Shown here piece by piece: positions 8,966-17,732 of a stretch of DNA of 64,000 bases. Position 1 is the stretch's first letter; each line of letters starts with the position of its first letter. Source of the stretch: Bacteriovoracia bacterium (lineage in GTDB: Bacteria; Bdellovibrionota; UBA1018; CAIPTA01); NCBI GenBank assembly GCA_050246755.1, contig JBFWVL010000003.1, positions 64,001 through 128,000 of the forward strand, read 5' to 3'. The position numbers were made by a program, and so were the translations under genes. Below the pieces are notes generated by a model. It was not told the DNA's origin, searched no databases, and was given only the letters and a program-made list of their open reading frames with translations.

Positions 8966-9118
8966 ATGAGCGCGGAAAACACTGACCTCGTGGAAGGGGA
9001 AGACTACTATCTCGATCCTGACACGGGACTGCTCACCTTTACCGCGGATTACCTGCGCAAGCGTGGGTATTGCTGCGATAGCGGCTGCCGCCATTGTCCC
9101 TACGAGAAGCCATGCTGA
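8966..9118 (+). CDS. DUF5522-like small Cys-rich protein (50 aa, absent from ORF track)
   Basis: MSAENTDLVEGEDYYLDPDTGLLTFTADYLRKRGYCCDSGCRHCPYEKPC. Confidence 0.85.
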   Translation: MSAENTDLVEGEDYYLDPDTGLLTFTADYLRKRGYCCDSGCRHCPYEKPC

Positions 9119-10332
9119 TCGACCTCAGTCCGCTGAAGAATAACCGCGACTATCGCCTGCTTTATTTCAGCCAAGTGGTCTCTCTTTTTGGCAGCATGAT
9201 CACCTACGTAGCGATTCCCTACCAAGTGCATCAGCTCACGCACTCAGTTTTTTTGGTCGGTCTGCTAGGCGCCGTGCAGCTCATTCCGCTAGTGCTGAGC
9301 GGCCTGGTTGGGGGAACCTATGCCGACCGCCTGGATCGCCGCCGGCTCATCCTCTGGTGCGAAGTGCTTATGTTGGTGGGCACGCTGGTGCTCGCGGCGA
9401 ATTCTTGGCGCGCCGAGCCCAGCGTGGTTCTTATCTTTTGCACCACCGCCTTCATGCAGGCGGTGAACGGTTTCCATCGGCCTTCCCTCGAAGCGATCAC
9501 CCAGAAAGTGGTGGCGAAAACGGACTACGCCGCGATCGGGGCGCTGAATTCTCTGCAGCGCACCGGCGGCGCTATTCTCGGGCCGATGCTCGGCGGCGTG
9601 CTATTAGCGTCGGGGGGAGCGGCCTTTGCGTACTTGGCCGATGCGGTCACGTTTTTCTGGGCCTTTGTCATGATCAGTTTATTGCCCCGTAGTGGCTTTG
9701 TTCCCGAAAAAAGAGAGGCCAGTCCGCTCGAGAGCTTTCGCGAGGGTATGGATTTCGCCCTTCGCCGCCCGGAACTGCTCGGAAGTTATTTCGTGGATAT
9801 CGTGGCCATGACTTTCGCTTTTCCGATCGCGATATTTCCCGCGCTCGCGTTGAACTGGGGGGGAGAGAAGGCCGCCGGGCTGCTTTTTTCCGCGATGTCG
9901 GTGGGATCCCTGCTCATTGCCCTCCTGAGCGGATGGCTAAACCGCTTTAAGCGGCACGGGGCATTGATCACAATTGCCGCCGGCACCTGGGGCTTGTGCA
10001 TCGTAGGGTTTGGGATGGCCGATTCGCTCTGGATGGCGCTTCTTTTTCTCGCGCTGGCGGGCGCCTCCGATATGGTGAGTGGAGTGTATCGCTCGGTGGT
10101 ATGGAATCAGGTAATTCCGAACGAAATGCGCGGGCGCTTGGCGGGAGTGGAAATGATCAGCTATATGATCGGCCCTCTCCTCGGGAATTTACGTGTAGGC
10201 ACGCAGGCCTCGTTCATGGGCACACGGATTGCCGTAGTTTCGGGCGGAGTTCTCTGCGCATTGGCTTGCGTGGCCTGCGTCTGGATTTTTCCTAAATTTT
10301 GGAACTACCGCGAAGCCGCGATTCCCGTGTAG
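9112..10332 (+). CDS. MFS transporter (EntS/DHA3-like)
   Basis: DLSPLK.NRDYRLLY, GGTYADRLDRRRL motif A, multiple TM helices, IPNEMRGR. Confidence 0.92.
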   Translation: MLIDLSPLKNNRDYRLLYFSQVVSLFGSMITYVAIPYQVHQLTHSVFLVGLLGAVQLIPLVLSGLVGGTYADRLDRRRLILWCEVLMLVGTLVLAANSWRAEPSVVLIFCTTAFMQAVNGFHRPSLEAITQKVVAKTDYAAIGALNSLQRTGGAILGPMLGGVLLASGGAAFAYLADAVTFFWAFVMISLLPRSGFVPEKREASPLESFREGMDFALRRPELLGSYFVDIVAMTFAFPIAIFPALALNWGGEKAAGLLFSAMSVGSLLIALLSGWLNRFKRHGALITIAAGTWGLCIVGFGMADSLWMALLFLALAGASDMVSGVYRSVVWNQVIPNEMRGRLAGVEMISYMIGPLLGNLRVGTQASFMGTRIAVVSGGVLCALACVACVWIFPKFWNYREAAIPV

Positions 10333-10454: not shown

Positions 10455-11654
10455 ATGCTACGCACGCATGGATGCTTGCTGCTCGCGATTCTGTTATTTG
10501 CCCTGCCAAATATTTCCGCCGCCACGGAGGTGAAGGAATGGACCTTCCTGGTATTCCTCAATGGGCACAACGATCTCGACCAGTACGGGGCTTCGAACAT
10601 GAAGCAGATGGAGCGGGTGGGCTCTACCGATAAGGTAAACGTGGTGGTGCAGTGGGCCTCGATGGCTTCGCCAACAACAAAACGCATTTATGTGAAAAAG
10701 AGCACCAACGCGGAAGTGGTTACCTCGCCCGCAGTGGAAGAGCTTTCGCCGGTGGATATGGGAAATCCCAATAGCCTCATCGAGTTCGTGCGCTGGGCGA
10801 AGGAGCGGTATCCCGCCCGTCACTATTTCATCGACGTGTGGAATCACGGCAGCGGCTGGCACCGGATCAATAAAATTGGCGGGGAGGCGCACCAGGACGA
10901 TATTAGCTGGGACGAGCGTTTCAACTCGCATATCACCACGAAGCAGCTGGGGGCCGCGATGCAGGTTATCAGCCGCGAGCTCGGCCAAAAAGTGGACGTA
11001 TACGGTAGTGACGCCTGCCTGATGGCCATGGCCGAAGTGGCCGGCGAGATGAAAAATTCCGTGGAGGTGTTCGTGGGCGCCGAAGAAACCGAGCCCGGAG
11101 ACGGCTGGCCCTATGACCAGCTGTTGGCCGAATGGAATAAGAAAGAGCGCGCCACTGCTTCCGATGTGGGCCAAATCCTGGTGCGGGAATACGTGAAGGC
11201 CTATTCCGGCGGCCAGTTTGGCAAAGAAGAAGTCACGCTCTCGGCGATGAAGATGTCGAATTGGAACCGCTTCGAGTCGGCATTCAAAAGCTTTTCCTCG
11301 GAAATGCGTAGTCTTGATGCGGCAGAACGAGCAGCGGTGCTCCGGGTGGCGGCCAATACCCAGTCCTACCAGTACTCAGACTATAAGGACTTGTTTCATT
11401 TCACCCAAGGACTTGCGGCCGCCAATCTGCCGAGCGTAGGCCGGAGCAGTCTGGCCCGCCTGCAGGAATCCCTGAATGACCTGATCCTCGAGAACGGAGT
11501 TACGGGAGAGTACCGCAATTCCCGCGGGATTTCCTTGTGGGTGCCTGATACTCGCTACCAGTACGACGCCCACGCCAAAGCATATCAGAGCTTGGCATTT
11601 CATCAGGCCACGAGCTGGGGCCAAGTGCTGGCGCGGCTTTTTCCCAAAAAGTAA
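10455..11654 (+). CDS. Clostripain-related cysteine peptidase (C11), secreted
   Basis: Signal peptide, KEWTFLVFLNGHNDL, WNHGSGW (His), DACLM (Cys). Confidence 0.92.
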   Translation: MLRTHGCLLLAILLFALPNISAATEVKEWTFLVFLNGHNDLDQYGASNMKQMERVGSTDKVNVVVQWASMASPTTKRIYVKKSTNAEVVTSPAVEELSPVDMGNPNSLIEFVRWAKERYPARHYFIDVWNHGSGWHRINKIGGEAHQDDISWDERFNSHITTKQLGAAMQVISRELGQKVDVYGSDACLMAMAEVAGEMKNSVEVFVGAEETEPGDGWPYDQLLAEWNKKERATASDVGQILVREYVKAYSGGQFGKEEVTLSAMKMSNWNRFESAFKSFSSEMRSLDAAERAAVLRVAANTQSYQYSDYKDLFHFTQGLAAANLPSVGRSSLARLQESLNDLILENGVTGEYRNSRGISLWVPDTRYQYDAHAKAYQSLAFHQATSWGQVLARLFPKK

Positions 11655-11877
11655 TAGCTGAGATCAGCTATGCTCCGATTTTTGGGGCCGGATATGGTGC
11701 TGCCTTCACACGGCAGCGCGATCCGGCCTTTTCATTTTCCCTTTTCCGCCCGCGATGATACGCCGCGCATGTTTCAAAGATATATACCTTTCTATATAGT
11801 TGTTTATTTTTTTTTGGAATCTCCGAAAGGATTGGGGGCCCGCTACGCGAGTGGTTGTTTAATGGAGGTAAAGTGAA

Positions 11878-12591
11878 ATGAAAACGATATCCGGGAGTCA
11901 GCTACGCTTCTGTATTTTACCGTCCGCTAATCCGCCTGCAGAGATGAAGGCGCTGCACGATAATTGTTTCCGGCTATGGATGGATGTGTGGAGCGAAACG
12001 TTCCGCAAGCTGAATTTTGATACTTCTCGGCTCGTGGACGATTTTATCCGCCAAGATTTGATCGCCTGCATTGCCGATGGTGACATGCCGGTGGCGATCC
12101 ACCTTTATTCCTTTTACGCCGCCGATAGCGAGGCCGCACGGGCCCACAGCTACCTAAACGGCAATTACCCTGAGCTCTACTTTGCGCGGCTGAAGAAGCA
12201 GAAGGTACGGTCGCTGATGTCGATGGAGTACCTCACCGTGCATCCTGATTGGCGCAAAGGGAAGAGTAACGTGCATTTTGCCATTGTGCTCGTAGGTCTT
12301 GCCCTAAAAACACTCCGGGCCTACGGTGCCGACGCCGCCATCGCGCCCGCGCGCCGCGATCATAAGGTGCATGATTTGGCTTACGCTTTTGGCGGAGAGC
12401 CGGTGATTGAAAACGTGCTCAACCACAATGTGGCTTGTGATCTGCTGATGTGCCACCGCGACCGCGTGATTCCGCACGCCAATCCCGAAGTGAACGAGCT
12501 CGTAAACTCGCTCTGGCAAACCAGGAAATTCTATCCCAACTACGAATTGCAGCCGGAAGACAATATTCTTCCGCTGCGTAAGGCGGCGTAA
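11878..12591 (+). CDS. GNAT-fold (LuxI/FeeM-like) putative N-acyltransferase
   Basis: LHDNCFRLWMDVW, DDFIRQD, MEYLTVHPDWRKG (GNAT motif A-like); GGAGG SD; fold inferred. Confidence 0.6.
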   Translation: MKTISGSQLRFCILPSANPPAEMKALHDNCFRLWMDVWSETFRKLNFDTSRLVDDFIRQDLIACIADGDMPVAIHLYSFYAADSEAARAHSYLNGNYPELYFARLKKQKVRSLMSMEYLTVHPDWRKGKSNVHFAIVLVGLALKTLRAYGADAAIAPARRDHKVHDLAYAFGGEPVIENVLNHNVACDLLMCHRDRVIPHANPEVNELVNSLWQTRKFYPNYELQPEDNILPLRKAA

Positions 12592-13544
12592 TGGAAAACG
12601 TAACGACCAAATTACCGGCCCGCACGGATTTTCCTCCCGAGCTCACCGTTTCTTCGCCGTGGCCTACCGTGGCGGCGATCGCGATGGACTGGGCGATTAT
12701 CGTGGGTTCCATCTGGTTGGCCGAACGGTTCTCTAATCCCGCTACCTTTCTCTTCGCCGTCTTTATGGTAGGTTCGCGGCAGCATGCCTTTTTCTTGATC
12801 ATGCACGAGGGGGCACATAGCTTGATCAGCAAAAACCGCTTTTGGAATGATAAGATCAGTAATTTTTTCGCGGCTTGGCCGGTAGGCTTTTCCACCGAAA
12901 AATATCGGCTACGTCACTGGATTCACCACCGCTACGTAAATACCGACAAAGATCCCGACTGGACCCGCAAGCGCGACGACGTAACTTGGCAATTTCCAAA
13001 AACTAAGATTGTTTACTGGAAGGATACGCTGGCGCACTTGCTCGGCAAGGGCGTGCTGGAGATGATTTTTGCTCTTCGCGGGCTCGGCCTCGCTAAATCG
13101 GATATCCCGCTCGCGGTTCCTTATTTCGGGTTCATCGTGGCAGCGATTACCTTGCTCGGCGGCTGGCGCTTGTTCGGCCTCTATTGGGTGGTTCCCTATT
13201 TCACGGTACTGCCGCTTCTGCACCGAATTCGGAATTCCTCGGAGCATTTGGGGCTTCCCAAAACTCACGTGCTGAATGGAACCCGTAACGTGGTGGGCTC
13301 GCCGGTGGAAACGTTTTTGCTCTGCCCCCATAACGGAGCAATGCATTTAGTTCACCACGTATATCCTTTTATTCCCTGGTACCGACTCAAGGCGGCGAGG
13401 GCCTTTCTTCTCACCAATGAAGAATATCGCACTTACGCCCACGAGAACGATAGCTACTTTCTCCCGCTCGGACGCAGCATGTACCGCGATATGCTACATC
13501 CGCCCCAGACCGAACTAGCCGAAAACACGAAACGAGCCGCATAG
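12591..13544 (+). CDS. Membrane fatty-acid desaturase
   Basis: His boxes HEGAH, HWIHH, HLVHH, plus EH and PWYRL; TAATG overlap with upstream gene. Confidence 0.92.
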   Translation: MENVTTKLPARTDFPPELTVSSPWPTVAAIAMDWAIIVGSIWLAERFSNPATFLFAVFMVGSRQHAFFLIMHEGAHSLISKNRFWNDKISNFFAAWPVGFSTEKYRLRHWIHHRYVNTDKDPDWTRKRDDVTWQFPKTKIVYWKDTLAHLLGKGVLEMIFALRGLGLAKSDIPLAVPYFGFIVAAITLLGGWRLFGLYWVVPYFTVLPLLHRIRNSSEHLGLPKTHVLNGTRNVVGSPVETFLLCPHNGAMHLVHHVYPFIPWYRLKAARAFLLTNEEYRTYAHENDSYFLPLGRSMYRDMLHPPQTELAENTKRAA

Positions 13545-13562
13545 AATACATTGGAGTCACCC

Positions 13563-14210
13563 ATGAAAAAACAAACCATCAAAGAGTTTACTGAAGGCGA
13601 GATCAACCGAGTAACCGCTACCATGATGAGCATCGACTGGAGCAACCCGGCGGCTTACGGCGATTTTTTGGCGCAAACCTATTATCATATCTGCCATTCC
13701 ACGCGCCTGCTTGCAGCGGCGGCGGCCCGCTTTCCTTTGCATCAGGAGAAATTCCATTTGCAATGCATGCGGCATTCCGAGGAGGAGCGCAGTCACGAAA
13801 AGCTTTCGTTGAGTGATCTCAAGGAAATCGGCTACCGGCTGGAAGAATTCTCCGAGCTGCCCGGCACCAAGTCTCTTTATCGCTCCAATTATTTCTTGAT
13901 CGAGCACGTGAGCCCCTTGGCGCTTTTCGGCTACGCGTATTTTCTGGAATGGATCGCCATCGCGGGCGGCGAAAAATTGATGGCCGCCACGGAGCCGGTA
14001 TACGGGTCCAGGGCCGTGAAGCATATGCACGTTCATACCAAGGAAGATCCTGAGCACCTAAAGGCCTATGAAGGATTGCTGGAGGAGTTTTCGGGGAAAG
14101 ACCGGGAAGTTCTGATCGAGGCGATCGCCACCACGGCTGCGGACTACGAAAGAATTTATCTGGAGATTGACGCGCGGGCCGCCAGCAAAAAGCAGAAACG
14201 GGCCGCTTAG
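13563..14210 (+). CDS. Heme-oxygenase-like diiron oxidase (iron-containing redox enzyme, TenA/CADD-like fold)
   Basis: YGDFLAQTYY, HSEEERSHE, GYAYFLE, HVHTKEDPEH metal-ligand pattern. Confidence 0.82.
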   Translation: MKKQTIKEFTEGEINRVTATMMSIDWSNPAAYGDFLAQTYYHICHSTRLLAAAAARFPLHQEKFHLQCMRHSEEERSHEKLSLSDLKEIGYRLEEFSELPGTKSLYRSNYFLIEHVSPLALFGYAYFLEWIAIAGGEKLMAATEPVYGSRAVKHMHVHTKEDPEHLKAYEGLLEEFSGKDREVLIEAIATTAADYERIYLEIDARAASKKQKRAA

Positions 14211-14953
14211 AGGAAACGCATGTTTCCGCGTGCCGTATTTTCGGAACCTACTTCGCGTACGGTTTTAAGGGTGAGCACATAGGTCTCACCCGTAATCGCG
14301 GAAACGAGCTTTACGATGTACTTTTCCTTCATCGCGAAAATGCATTCTTGTTCCGTCATCAATTCGCGCAGAGTATACTCGGGCACGTTTTCCCATTCCG
14401 AGTAGCTAAGGCGCCCTTCCAAAACTTTTTCGACCGTCTCGCAGAGTTGTTTCGTGACTAGACTCGAGCGTTCGTAGAGCTCGAACCAAGGATACGTGGT
14501 GAGCTCGAGGATGGAATAATTGCAAAGCGTGAAGCAGCTGTAGCTGCGGTAGACCTGGATATAATCTTTGTTGGCTACCTCGATCACATCGCCCGGGCTG
14601 ATCTGGGTCATGAAGTTCGAAACGTAGCCAGAATCTGAAAGCAGGAAGAGCTGGCCCATGGCGTAATTCAGCATGGCGCTTTCGTCGAAGCCGTCGATCT
14701 GTTGCTCAAGGGCCCCGGCCACGAAGCGGCTCTGCTCTTGGAGGCCGCGAATAATGCCGATTTGGTTGTCACTGCTTAGTTCGGCAAAGCGCGCCCAAGC
14801 TCTCGCCGGAGCCTGAGGAACCTGTTTTTTAATGAGCTGCTTGAGCAGCGCTTCAAAATGCGTGAGCGTCGAACGCATGAGCTCGATATTGCAGTTTTGA
14901 TGGGGCGGGCCCATCGAGGGGGTAGGGCTTAATTTGGCAGTGCTAATGGGCAT
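14207..14953 (-). CDS. Stand-alone PAS-like protein
   Basis: DVIEVANKDYIQVYRSYSCFTLCNYSILELTTYPWFELYER follows a PAS core pattern; no output domain seen; stop overlaps the HDO stop. Confidence 0.6.
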   Translation of the reverse strand: MPISTAKLSPTPSMGPPHQNCNIELMRSTLTHFEALLKQLIKKQVPQAPARAWARFAELSSDNQIGIIRGLQEQSRFVAGALEQQIDGFDESAMLNYAMGQLFLLSDSGYVSNFMTQISPGDVIEVANKDYIQVYRSYSCFTLCNYSILELTTYPWFELYERSSLVTKQLCETVEKVLEGRLSYSEWENVPEYTLRELMTEQECIFAMKEKYIVKLVSAITGETYVLTLKTVREVGSENTARGNMRFL

Positions 14954-14961
14954 TTGGTGTA

Positions 14962-14990
14962 CTTATACCAAACTGTAGTATTATAGTCAA
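14962..14990 (-). promoter_or_regulatory. Near-consensus sigma-70 promoter, leaderless
   Basis: TTGACT-N17-TATAAG with TG extended -10, 8 nt before ATG. Confidence 0.75.
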
Positions 14991-15021
14991 CTACTTTAAG
15001 CGGCCATAAGCTATTATAGGC

Positions 15022-15318
15022 CTAGCTGGGGCGCTTCGGCTTAAGGGCATGCTCCAGCTGTTCGCGCTCTGATTCCAGGATTAGTTCCATCACCGTTTGA
15101 GCGGGCATATCGTACATTTTAATCAAGGCTTTGAGCTTCTTAAGCGGCGGCACCGCGATTCCACGTTCGAAGTTGGAAATAAACTGGGCAGAAGAATAGC
15201 CGAGGGTGTTGCTTACTTCTCGCTGCGTAAGGTTTGCCCGCATGCGCATTTTTTGGAGGTATTCTCCGAGGTTGGTGTATTTGCGGGGAAGTATATATCG
15301 TTTTTTCTTTGCCATCAT
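15022..15318 (-). CDS. XRE-family HTH transcriptional regulator
   Basis: LGEYLQKMRMRANLTQREVSNTLGYSSAQFISNFERG. Confidence 0.92.
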   Translation of the reverse strand: MMAKKKRYILPRKYTNLGEYLQKMRMRANLTQREVSNTLGYSSAQFISNFERGIAVPPLKKLKALIKMYDMPAQTVMELILESEREQLEHALKPKRPS

Positions 15319-15634
15319 GTTGTCACATTTCCAAGGTGAATTAGACGCGAGTATGTAAGGAAATCTGAAAAAAATCAAATCTTAGTTAGGGAGGAAATTT
15401 CTTTTCGAATGCCGAAAGGGCACCGTCCGACTGGAGAAATTGCGGTTAGTAAAGGGTGTGCGGCGCATTGTCTGCCCATAAAAATCGCCGCGAAGCCCCA
15501 AAATCTTTCTAATATCCCTATAAGCTCGGAATTATCGTAGTTATAGAGACATATTTCCGTATTCTGCCGCAAATATGACGCACGCGATTGAAGCGTGGAA
15601 ATCGCACGTTTAGCATTGCCTTATAGTAGGCAAA

Positions 15635-16033
15635 ATGAATAAACGGGTTGCGGCGATGAAAGCTACGCCAAAAGTATTGGTGGCCGATGATGATGAGGCT
15701 ATCCAAATTTGTATGGAAGACATCTCCATGCAGGAGGGCTGGGACCTCATATTCGCCCGCGACGGCGAAGAATGCCTTTCGATGGTGGCCACGCAGAATC
15801 CTTCCCTTATTATTTTGGACCAGCGGATGCCGCATATGACCGGAGAAGAGGTGCTCACGCGCCTGCAGGATGAGGGGCGCCACTATCCCATTATTTTAAT
15901 TTCCGCCGAAAAGGATTTATCCCGCATGAAGCGTTTTCCGGCCATCGTAAAGACCCTCACCAAGCCCTTCGACTTAGATGAGTTCATTAATGTGGTAAAC
16001 GCGGAGCTCTCTCGCTTGTCGGCGCCCCTCTAA
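15635..16033 (+). CDS. Single-domain response regulator
   Basis: VLVADDD, ILDQRMPHMTG, KPFDL; TATAGT-N7-ATG upstream. Confidence 0.92.
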   Translation: MNKRVAAMKATPKVLVADDDEAIQICMEDISMQEGWDLIFARDGEECLSMVATQNPSLIILDQRMPHMTGEEVLTRLQDEGRHYPIILISAEKDLSRMKRFPAIVKTLTKPFDLDEFINVVNAELSRLSAPL

Positions 16034-16184: not shown

Positions 16185-17732
16185 ATGGAACAGCTGAGAA
16201 CGGGGCGGGATATGAGGTCCAAAAAAACTGCGAATGCAATTCGGATGTCTGGCAGCACTAGCGCCGAAGACTTCGAGGAAACGGAAGAGAAGCCGGTCGA
16301 ACGTGATTCGCGCCGCCGCAGCTTTCAGCTCATCAGCCAGGATGGAGTGCAACGGCGCATTGCCGTCATTGATGACGATGAGGGCATCCGTCTCTACCTG
16401 AGCGAGGTGCTCGCGCAGCAGGGTTTTCAGGTGCAAGAATACCCCAATGCGGAGCAATTTCTCGTGCGCTTGGAGCAGTCGCTTAAGAACGGGATATCCT
16501 TCGTAGACGTAATTCTCTGCGATGTGCGCTTGCCGGGAGTAGATGGGATCACTTTAGTGAGCCGCGTGAAAGAGCGCACGAACGATTTGCCTGTGATCCT
16601 GATGACGGCCTACGCCGAAGTGGAAGCCGCCGTGCGGGCCATGCGCGACGGCGCCTACGACTATCTCGAAAAACCATTCGACCTCAGCCGCCTGAACAGC
16701 GTGCTCGAAAACGCGGTGCGCTTTCGTAAGCTGAGCTACGAAAATAAATTCCTGAAGAATATAATCGATTCCGACATTCATCTGCAGGGAGTGCAATGCC
16801 AAAGCGCTTCCATGCGCGCGATATACGACCTGATCAAGCGGGTTGCTCCTACTGAATCGAGCGTGCTCATTACTGGGGAAAGCGGTGTGGGCAAGGAAGT
16901 GGTGGCCCGGGCGCTCCACGATAATAGCGAACGTGCCGATAAGCCTTTCATAAGTATTAACTGTTCGGCCATTCCGGAGTCTTTGCTGGAGTCCGAGCTG
17001 TTCGGCCATACCAAGGGATCTTTCACGGGGGCCACCCAGCATCGCAAGGGCCTTTTCGAAGAAGCCGACGGCGGTACTCTTTTCCTCGATGAGATCGGAG
17101 ACCTTCAATTCTCCCTCCAGGCGAAACTCCTCCGGGTTTTTCAGGAGCAGAAGATCCGCGCGGTGGGAGATAGTAAATTCCGGCCGGTGGACGTACGTAT
17201 CATTACGGCTACGCACAAAAATCTGGCGAACGAAATTAAGGAAGGCCGCTTTCGCGAAGACTTATACTACCGCCTCAACGTGATTCCGATTCACATCGCC
17301 CCCCTTCGCCAGCGCAAGGAAGACATCATCAGCTTGGCGAAATTTTTTCTCGATAAGTCGGCAGAAAAAAATAAGATGGACCTCCGGGGATTCACGCCGG
17401 CGGCCCTCACCAAATTGGTAAATCTCCCTTGGCACGGAAACGTGCGGGAGCTGCAAAACGTGATCGAGCGCAGCGTGGTTCTTTCTTCGGGAGACGCGAT
17501 CGATGAATCGGATATTCCTGTGGAGCAGGCCGCCGAGGGCGACGAAATGATGGAGGAGGTGGGTTTCGACATGCCTTCCCTGCGCGACGTGGAAAAGCGC
17601 TATATTCTTTCGGTGCTGCGAAAGCATAACGGAAAGAAAGATGCGGCCGCGAAAGTATTAGGGATGAGCCGCCGGACGCTTTACCGGAAGCTCACTAACC
17701 AGGACGACGAGTCGGATACGGGGCTTAATTAG
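16185..17732 (+). CDS. NtrC-family sigma-54 activator (REC-AAA+-Fis HTH) with N-terminal extension
   Basis: IDDD receiver, GESGVGKE, ELFGHTKGSFTGA, LFLDEIG, WHGNVRELQN, LGMSRRTLYRKL. Confidence 0.95.
   Translation: MEQLRTGRDMRSKKTANAIRMSGSTSAEDFEETEEKPVERDSRRRSFQLISQDGVQRRIAVIDDDEGIRLYLSEVLAQQGFQVQEYPNAEQFLVRLEQSLKNGISFVDVILCDVRLPGVDGITLVSRVKERTNDLPVILMTAYAEVEAAVRAMRDGAYDYLEKPFDLSRLNSVLENAVRFRKLSYENKFLKNIIDSDIHLQGVQCQSASMRAIYDLIKRVAPTESSVLITGESGVGKEVVARALHDNSERADKPFISINCSAIPESLLESELFGHTKGSFTGATQHRKGLFEEADGGTLFLDEIGDLQFSLQAKLLRVFQEQKIRAVGDSKFRPVDVRIITATHKNLANEIKEGRFREDLYYRLNVIPIHIAPLRQRKEDIISLAKFFLDKSAEKNKMDLRGFTPAALTKLVNLPWHGNVRELQNVIERSVVLSSGDAIDESDIPVEQAAEGDEMMEEVGFDMPSLRDVEKRYILSVLRKHNGKKDAAAKVLGMSRRTLYRKLTNQDDESDTGLN

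Follow-up and report, generated by a model that had tools for sequence, protein, structure and literature searches.

A conserved Bdellovibrionota gene module of a GNAT-fold acyltransferase, diiron oxygenases and a PAS-like protein, a candidate small-molecule signalling system

Introduction

Bacterial signalling through a dedicated synthase and its cognate receptor is an established paradigm. The closest described cases to the locus studied here are the LuxI-LuxR pairs, the N-acyl amino acid synthases of the FeeM type recovered from environmental DNA, and two circuits with PAS-domain receptors, RpfF-RpfR for diffusible signal factor (DSF) and VqmA for 3,5-dimethylpyrazin-2-ol (DPO). Here, we describe a five-gene locus (genes A to E) in a stretch of 64,000 nucleotides from a Bacteriovoracia bacterium (assembly GCA_050246755.1, contig JBFWVL010000003.1, positions 64,001 to 128,000 of the forward strand), hereafter called the window. 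The locus encodes a GNAT-fold acyltransferase (A), two diiron enzymes (B and C), a PAS-like protein (D) and an XRE-family helix-turn-helix (HTH) regulator (E). It belongs to a conserved module that is specific to Bdellovibrionota. The probable product of the module is an oxidised small molecule with an acyl group, for which the module also encodes the likely binding protein, and it may constitute a new kind of bacterial signalling system.

The LuxI family provides the best solved structural matches of A in the module, namely BjaI, RpaI and MesI. Furthermore, the module shares with LuxI-LuxR systems the placement of the synthase gene beside, and often convergent with, the gene of a putative ligand-binding protein, the presence of several paralogous pairs in one genome and the many solo receptors, and in some modules genes that supply acyl-CoA adjoin A. 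In contrast to LuxI, A has no match to PF00765, and unlike LuxR, the module partner D is PAS-like and carries no HTH; diiron oxygenases are, in addition, near-obligatory in the module. The host genome (3.55 Mb in 10 contigs, 95.7% complete) contains no match to PF03472, the LuxR-type autoinducer-binding domain, in a profile search whose E. coli positive control matched, which widens to the whole genome the absence of LuxR that a first-pass annotation had reported for the window. According to a phylogenomic preprint, acyl-homoserine lactone synthases are not predicted in Bdellovibrionota (10.1101/2020.11.01.364414).

FeeM resembles A as its second-best solved fold match (2g0b) and through FeeM clusters in the ESM Atlas, and tailoring enzymes accompany the synthase in fee clusters and modules alike. 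However, A does not match PF21926, while true PF21926 proteins are encoded elsewhere in its genome. We saw no acyl carrier protein in the modules, and fee clusters are not known to have a constant PAS-like partner.

The DSF and DPO circuits use a PAS domain as the autoinducer receptor, a role that the PAS-like D could take here. VqmA joins PAS and HTH in one chain, which is also the architecture of one fusion protein (P0124) of the D family. The synthases differ, being a crotonase and Tdh in those circuits and a GNAT-fold protein here. Unlike RpfR and VqmA, D has no similarity to PAS profiles, and D and HTH are mostly separate proteins. RpfR also contacts its own synthase, according to two reports (PMC6361424; 10.1101/2019.12.19.881847).

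We found no description of this gene set in the literature, with subscription journals and supplements lying outside the search, which agrees with the remark in the first-pass annotation that no described system with this gene set was known. New with respect to the paradigm are the A and D families, a diiron enzyme as obligatory partner, a putative receptor split into PAS and HTH proteins, and a common degron-like tail. How obligate bacterial predators signal to each other is still an open question. If the proposal made here is true, the module would give a testable role to two new families without a Pfam model, A and the very large D family, and would place heme-oxygenase-like diiron enzymes in a new substrate context.

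Results

Architecture of the locus

Genes A (11878-12591, 237 aa), B (12591-13544, 317 aa) and C (13551-14210, 219 aa) lie on the plus strand and converge on genes D (14207-14953, 248 aa) and E (15022-15378) on the minus strand, and the open reading frame (ORF) coordinates match the five-gene arrangement given in the first-pass annotation. The finer details of that description hold as well. More specifically, the overlap of A and B reads TAATG (within 12588-12601), and the stop codons of C and D overlap in the tetranucleotide TTAG at 14207-14210. The gap of 18 nt between B and C applies if translation of C starts at the alternative ATG at 13563, the TTG start lying at 13551. E comprises 118 aa from its TTG start and 98 aa from an in-frame ATG at 15318, the position at which the annotated locus had been made to end. 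A spacer of 68 nt (14954-15021, minus strand) separates E from D. A search for sequencing runs of this DNA listed four DNA rows from two studies, one of which may be the source sample, and no RNA run.

A and D travel together across the phylum

To place the locus in the phylum, an even sample of 201 Bdellovibrionota genomes from 118 genera was surveyed. A was found in 69 genomes and 41 genera (84 matches) and D in 68 genomes and 42 genera (125 matches). Both occur together in 62 genomes, whereas seven genomes have A alone and six have D alone. For 64 of the 84 A genes, a D gene is present on the same contig at a distance of 25-1640 nt (median 678 nt, about one gene), so that the homologues co-occur as the first-pass annotation had expected. 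Copy numbers reach four A and six D genes per genome, and 61 of the 125 D genes are solos that do not stand beside any A. These data show that the GNAT-fold and PAS-like proteins travel and diversify together. In one family, all 20 genomes sampled carry the module, among them single-contig complete genomes with up to two A and six D genes, and for this reason genetics in culturable relatives may be possible.

The composition of the module was mapped at 29 loci, consisting of the window and of fetched loci picked from the A matches. Three of these (L037, L043 and L044) were included because they have no nearby D, and the count omits L026-L028, which duplicate L013-L015, as well as L033, where the match spans only 35 residues; L030 and L038 look closely related. 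D is present in 25 of the 29 modules and C in 23. B occurs in 10 modules, five of which have B and C together, and at least one of the two diiron enzymes is found in 28. An E-like XRE gene is present in 16 modules. The five-gene set proposed at first therefore stands as a module core for A and D with at least one diiron enzyme, but not for B (10/29) or E (16/29). Gene order and strand vary by genus, being convergent in the window, divergent in L013, interleaved in L014 and on a single strand in L015. The linkage persists despite this shuffling, which argues that the module is a functional unit.

A second module is located in the same genome (G000:C1:832229-835160, corresponding to L018:6230-9161). 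It consists of E, B, A and D, has no heme-oxygenase-like diiron enzyme, and its A protein is 24% identical to that of the window. A gene for an amine-oxidase-like flavoprotein follows this second module (L018:9296-10993).

Protein A adopts a GNAT fold

Among 325 candidates, 38 proved to be homologues of A at E<=0.001, and every one of these is unnamed or "hypothetical". A itself has no match in Pfam or NCBIfam, and nothing meaningful was retrieved from the PDB by phmmer with the single sequence or by profile search. An AlphaFold2 model built from the 38-row alignment reached a predicted local distance difference test score (pLDDT) of 93.8 and a predicted template modelling score of 0.89. Foldseek with this model returned as best solved structure BjaI, a CoA-dependent LuxI-type synthase (4.5e-6; TM 0.57/0.63), followed by FeeM (2g0b; 8.3e-6; TM 0.53/0.64), with RpaI, MesI and EsaI lower in the list. 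A structure search of the ESM Atlas gave FeeM-domain clusters with TM values of 0.63-0.66. The GNAT/LuxI fold foreseen for the 11878 protein was thus recovered in the model; the segment MEYLTVHPDWRK, singled out in that earlier description, corresponds to residues 116-127 of A.

More specifically, the Foldseek results describe a GNAT-derived fold with a LuxI-type N-terminal extension and a small margin over other GNATs. As a model-based assignment, the GNAT fold of A is secure. The LuxI/FeeM subclass is our best guess from the model, because arylalkylamine N-acetyltransferases score close behind. In a broad alignment of the family, W34 is the sole invariant residue, and R58, Y92, R126 and R159 are nearly invariant. 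No A member matches PF13444 or PF21926. A genome-wide search with PF00765 likewise gave no match, although its positive control matched no control genome either.

B and C are diiron enzymes

B is a predicted membrane three-His-box diiron oxygenase of the FA_desaturase superfamily (PF00487, 9.7e-36). Its boxes H72/H76, H109/H112/H113 and H252/H255/H256 comprise eight histidines that are invariant in nine of nine homologues. C is a heme-oxygenase-like diiron enzyme (HDO) that matches PF14518 (Haem_oxygenas_2; 1.3e-7, 32 bits against a cut-off of 28.9) and PDB entry 3dde (5.2e-10). HDO proteins bind their metals through the pattern ExxH...E...HxxxDxxH, and in C the six ligands E79, H82, E133, H162, D166 and H169 are kept by 15 of 15 homologues. 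Both enzyme assignments of the first-pass annotation were therefore borne out, and to judge from these residues, B and C are intact diiron enzymes.

The nearest described relatives are UndA, an HDO, UndB, which is membrane-bound and desaturase-like, and GntB. C shares with them the complete set of HDO ligands, and B shares the three His boxes. UndA and UndB form a parallel pair of fatty-acid decarboxylases; similarly, A has as its alternative or joint partners an HDO that is soluble and a diiron enzyme of the membrane. The best curated match of B is the GntB arginine hydroxylase (NCBIfam NF041365, 1.3e-40), and lipid desaturase and carotenoid models of NCBIfam score far lower. With 139.7 bits against a cut-off of 380 bits, B ranks as related to GntB rather than as an equivalog, and the match of C to PF14518 is generic, so that neither similarity indicates a substrate. 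An "unsaturated N-acyl compound" had earlier been named as the product of the operon. The analysis does not show such a product, since B scores far nearer to an amino-acid hydroxylase than to lipid desaturases and the product is not derivable.

Protein D belongs to a large family with a PAS-like domain

D is a stand-alone protein with 11 homologues among 347 candidates. An exhaustive profile search expanded its family to 1417 clusters at 50% identity, 1318 of them at E<=1e-10, and nearly all of these clusters are stand-alone proteins of about 220-260 aa. D has no Pfam match, and no PDB match was obtained with the single sequence or the profile. The AlphaFold2 model (pLDDT 84.9) shows a separate and variable helical N-domain (residues ~17-101) and an alpha/beta domain (~104-235). 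Among the Foldseek matches listed, almost all are PAS or PAS-like, including NifL, HIF-2/ARNT, EcDOS and LOV, and in the ESM Atlas PAS clusters were obtained both by features and by structure, with TM values below 0.5. The earlier assignment of a PAS pattern to D stands in part: the C-terminal half does match PAS folds, but weakly and without any PAS profile, and given the missing Pfam match, the pattern holds at fold level alone. We therefore regard D as PAS-like at fold level with moderate confidence, as judged from the model.

Longer members of the family are rare. Only three of 158 D-family representatives exceed 280 aa; P0175 and P0114 have no Pfam domain, and P0124 carries an HTH. A word-index search for longer, fused forms of D, which provides weak evidence, found none. 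Two tandem D paralogues follow a single A-C-methyltransferase operon at L040:6198-7696 (minus strand).

Regulator E and its link to D

E matches the Pfam models HTH_31 (8.6e-9) and HTH_3 (1.2e-7), both above their cut-offs, in agreement with its previous identification as an XRE regulator. The fusion protein P0124 (317 aa, metagenomic) combines a D domain with a C-terminal XRE-type HTH, which scores 1.8e-5 in Pfam, just below the cut-off, and 1.8e-7 with a hidden Markov model of module-linked E proteins; BLASTP of the window's E against P0124 gave no alignment. Complex prediction of D with the 98-aa form of E returned 0.00 in both runs, which were performed without controls, and nothing was concluded from it. 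We infer from the adjacency of the genes, the single D-HTH fusion and a shared promoter element that D could be the sensor of the product and E the output. At two further loci (L016:4782-5522, plus strand; L029:2568-3272, minus strand), XRE proteins of about 240 aa stand beside D and combine an N-terminal HTH with an unassigned C-terminal extension of about 150 aa.

An ATATAT-rich element at the A promoter and the E start

A search for direct and inverted repeats across 11600-15700 returned short two-copy matches only, among them repeat I22, which led to the 9-mer GATATATAC. Two copies are present in the window, compared with 0.09 expected, and four in the whole 3.55-Mb genome. The first window site (11779-11787, plus strand) lies in the spacer of a candidate promoter upstream of A (11773-11800, plus strand; TTCAAA-16-TATAGT), where the spacer also contains a second TATATA at 11793, and the other (15291-15299, minus strand) lies just within the 5' end of E. 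The promoter call for A is weak by itself because the consensus scan found two sites compared with 3.4 expected in shuffled sequence. On the minus strand of the E-D spacer, TTGACT-17-TATAAG was read by eye and was not reported by the scan. The two remaining copies of the 9-mer are located just upstream of a 798-aa ORF (G000:C1:195786) and inside a 765-aa ORF (C1:1734008). The 798-aa ORF adjoins two response-regulator-like ORFs.

The hexamers ATATAT/TATATA number 403 genome-wide, corresponding to 0.03 expected per 280 nt. Three were counted upstream of A, two at E and seven between E and B of the second module (control region G000:C1:832601-832730); none was found at solo E and D genes. Comparable AT dyads precede A or E in L013, L014 and L015. 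The element is credible as an operator because it recurs at the paralogous module, and GATATATAC together with TATATA at 11793 is a candidate operator.

A shared C-terminal tail on the three enzymes

The three enzymes end alike, A in ...LRKAA, B in ...TKRAA and C in ...QKRAA, which corresponds to an ssrA-like (K/R)xAA tail. In a crude set of 3104 host ORFs, 52 end in AA and 13 in [KR][KR]AA, the latter including A, B and C. An AA end is found in 24 of 38 A homologues, and a similar small-residue pair in 33 of 38. Across the surveyed loci, the tail is present in 13 of 18 A, five of nine B and eight of 15 C proteins, compared with none of 17 D and none of nine E proteins; among D-family proteins at large, 0 of 158 end in AA. 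The tmRNA tag of the host, GNEYALAA, ends in ALAA, and ClpX is known to recognise C-terminal degrons. The common tail suggests a degradation or docking signal, and by analogy with ssrA it suggests that A, B and C are short-lived protease substrates. That three enzymes of a single pathway share such a tail is unusual and can be tested directly.

Discussion

Taken together, we propose that the window locus is one copy of a Bdellovibrionota-wide, fast-diversifying small-molecule module. In this model, A would most likely draw on an acyl-CoA donor and couple the acyl group to an amine acceptor, giving an amide. The soluble HDO C, the membrane enzyme B, or both, would then tailor this product oxidatively. 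D, presumably cytoplasmic, would bind the product in its PAS-like pocket domain as its cognate binding protein and, where E is present, would act with E on the element rich in ATATAT that overlaps both the promoter of A and the start of E. The ssrA-like tails would keep A, B and C short-lived as protease substrates. With enzymes, D and E arranged in this way, the circuit would resemble a synthase-receptor signalling pair. The multiple A and D copies, the solo D genes and the second, divergent module of the host genome form a diversity like that of signalling systems. We estimate the probability of this reading, an acyl-CoA-derived and oxidatively tailored signal with a cognate PAS-like sensor in a synthase-plus-sensor circuit, at roughly 50%. 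More tentatively, Bdellovibrionota may possess an autoinducer family of their own, with a LuxI/FeeM-fold synthase, diiron tailoring, stand-alone PAS-like receptors that act via XRE partners, and a shared degron.

Several observations weigh against the signalling reading. With regard to the synthase, the Foldseek values of LuxI and FeeM are only about five-fold better than those of arylalkylamine N-acetyltransferases, and none of 25 A-family members matches the Pfam models of GNAT, LuxI (PF00765) or FeeM (PF21926) at E<=1. When the A profile was compared by hhalign with a PF21926 protein encoded in the same genome, just the "hP.WR" strand was aligned, without significance (E 0.071, probability 0.8%, 16 columns). 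The sensor is affected in a similar manner. The Foldseek E-values of D are weak, ranging from 2.7e-3 for the best match to 7e-2 (TM by target 0.45-0.68), none of 22 D members matches any PAS profile at E<=1, hhalign gave no significant alignment between the D profile and the window's PAS kinase, and D has no DNA-binding domain. At the level of the module, 20 of the 84 A genes have no D within 5 kb, E is absent from 13 of the 29 modules, and three E paralogues in the host genome adjoin neither A nor D. The P0124 fusion is a single metagenomic protein that could be a frameshift artefact, and the cis element was identified post hoc. Finally, adjacency is equally expected if D is a biosynthetic or regulatory accessory rather than a receptor.

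This last point leads to the alternative that survives best, namely that the genes form a biosynthetic cluster for a specialised metabolite or a lipid-like compound and that D would be a partner of the enzymes and not a transcription-linked receptor. D might act as a product-sensing feedback inhibitor of the synthase, comparable to the FI domain of RpfR on RpfF, or as an adaptor or anti-adaptor governing the proteolysis of the AA-tailed A, B and C. The lack of a DNA-binding domain in D and the 13 modules without E fit this explanation, as do the separate, variable helical N-domain that precedes the PAS-like domain and the rare (K/R)xAA tail common to A, B and C (three of 13 [KR][KR]AA ends in 3104 ORFs). 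The restriction of the AA tail, found in 24 of 38 A homologues and in none of 158 D proteins, and its likeness to the ALAA end of the tmRNA tag point in the same direction. A precedent is RpfR, described in PMC6361424 as a PAS receptor that also binds its synthase. However, three observations speak for a transcriptional output, namely the D-HTH fusion, the frequent adjacency of E and the shared promoter element, and a dedicated role as an enzyme partner is hard to explain for a family in which 61 of 125 genes stand without A. On balance, we consider this alternative unlikely.

Considerably less probable is a remodelling of membrane aminolipids, in which A would be an OlsB-like N-acyltransferase producing a lipoamino acid, with B and C acting on this lipid as hydroxylases or desaturases and D assisting as a lipid-binding protein. 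The synthesis of ornithine lipids employs an N-acyltransferase and hydroxylases, and the GNAT fold of A, which is of the FeeM/Acetyltransf_5 class, and the membership of B among the membrane diiron enzymes of the desaturase/hydroxylase superfamily would suit such a pathway. The distribution of A is, however, patchy (69/201 genomes), several divergent paralogous modules occur per genome, and regulators are closely linked to them. The accessory ligase, methyltransferase and major facilitator superfamily (MFS) genes described below, the missing matches of A to PF13444 and PF21926, and the greater proximity of B to GntB than to lipid desaturases also argue against a lipid-remodelling role.

A toxin-antitoxin or defence-type pair, with A as the GNAT toxin and E as the XRE antitoxin, is highly improbable, for although E weakly matches the antitoxin-type HTH models HipB and MqsA and a GNAT toxin structure appears at rank 23 in the Foldseek list of A, A is longer than GNAT toxins, has its best matches in LuxI and FeeM, and is never directly paired with E, which 13 of 29 modules lack, its constant neighbours being the diiron enzymes and D.

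Genomic context of the modules

The genes surrounding the modules were inspected for further components. Adenylate-forming ligases are encoded directly upstream of A and co-directionally in L030 and L038 (two modules each), and acyl-CoA dehydrogenases occupy the same position in L022 and L024. In L040, a methyltransferase gene separates C from D. The MFS transporters that flank the modules in L017, L030 and L038 belong to a subfamily other than that of the window's transporter, which is of the MFS_3 type (9094-10332, plus strand; PF05977, 3.4e-32) and is encoded 1.5 kb upstream of A; it is a possible exporter. This context of ligases, dehydrogenases, methyltransferase and transporters is compatible with a small molecule that is fed by acyl-CoA, tailored and exported.

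Downstream of E, the window encodes a single-domain response regulator (15635-16033, plus strand) and an NtrC-type activator (16185-17732, plus strand), both assigned by Pfam/NCBIfam. A pair of response regulator and NtrC-type activator also flanks the modules in L013 and L015, and thus represents a context conserved at the genus level. A response-regulator-like gene of 489 aa directly follows the single solo D gene of the host genome (G000:C1:460007-460702). In the window, the interval from the MFS_3 gene to A holds a gene for a clostripain-family (Peptidase_C11) protein with a signal-peptide-like N-terminus (10455-11654, plus strand), which is not kept beside other modules. Elsewhere in the genome, a 354-aa protein (G000:C7; L034:850-1914, minus strand) combines an N-terminal FeeM domain with a C-terminal PilZ domain and is possibly an acyltransferase controlled by cyclic di-GMP.

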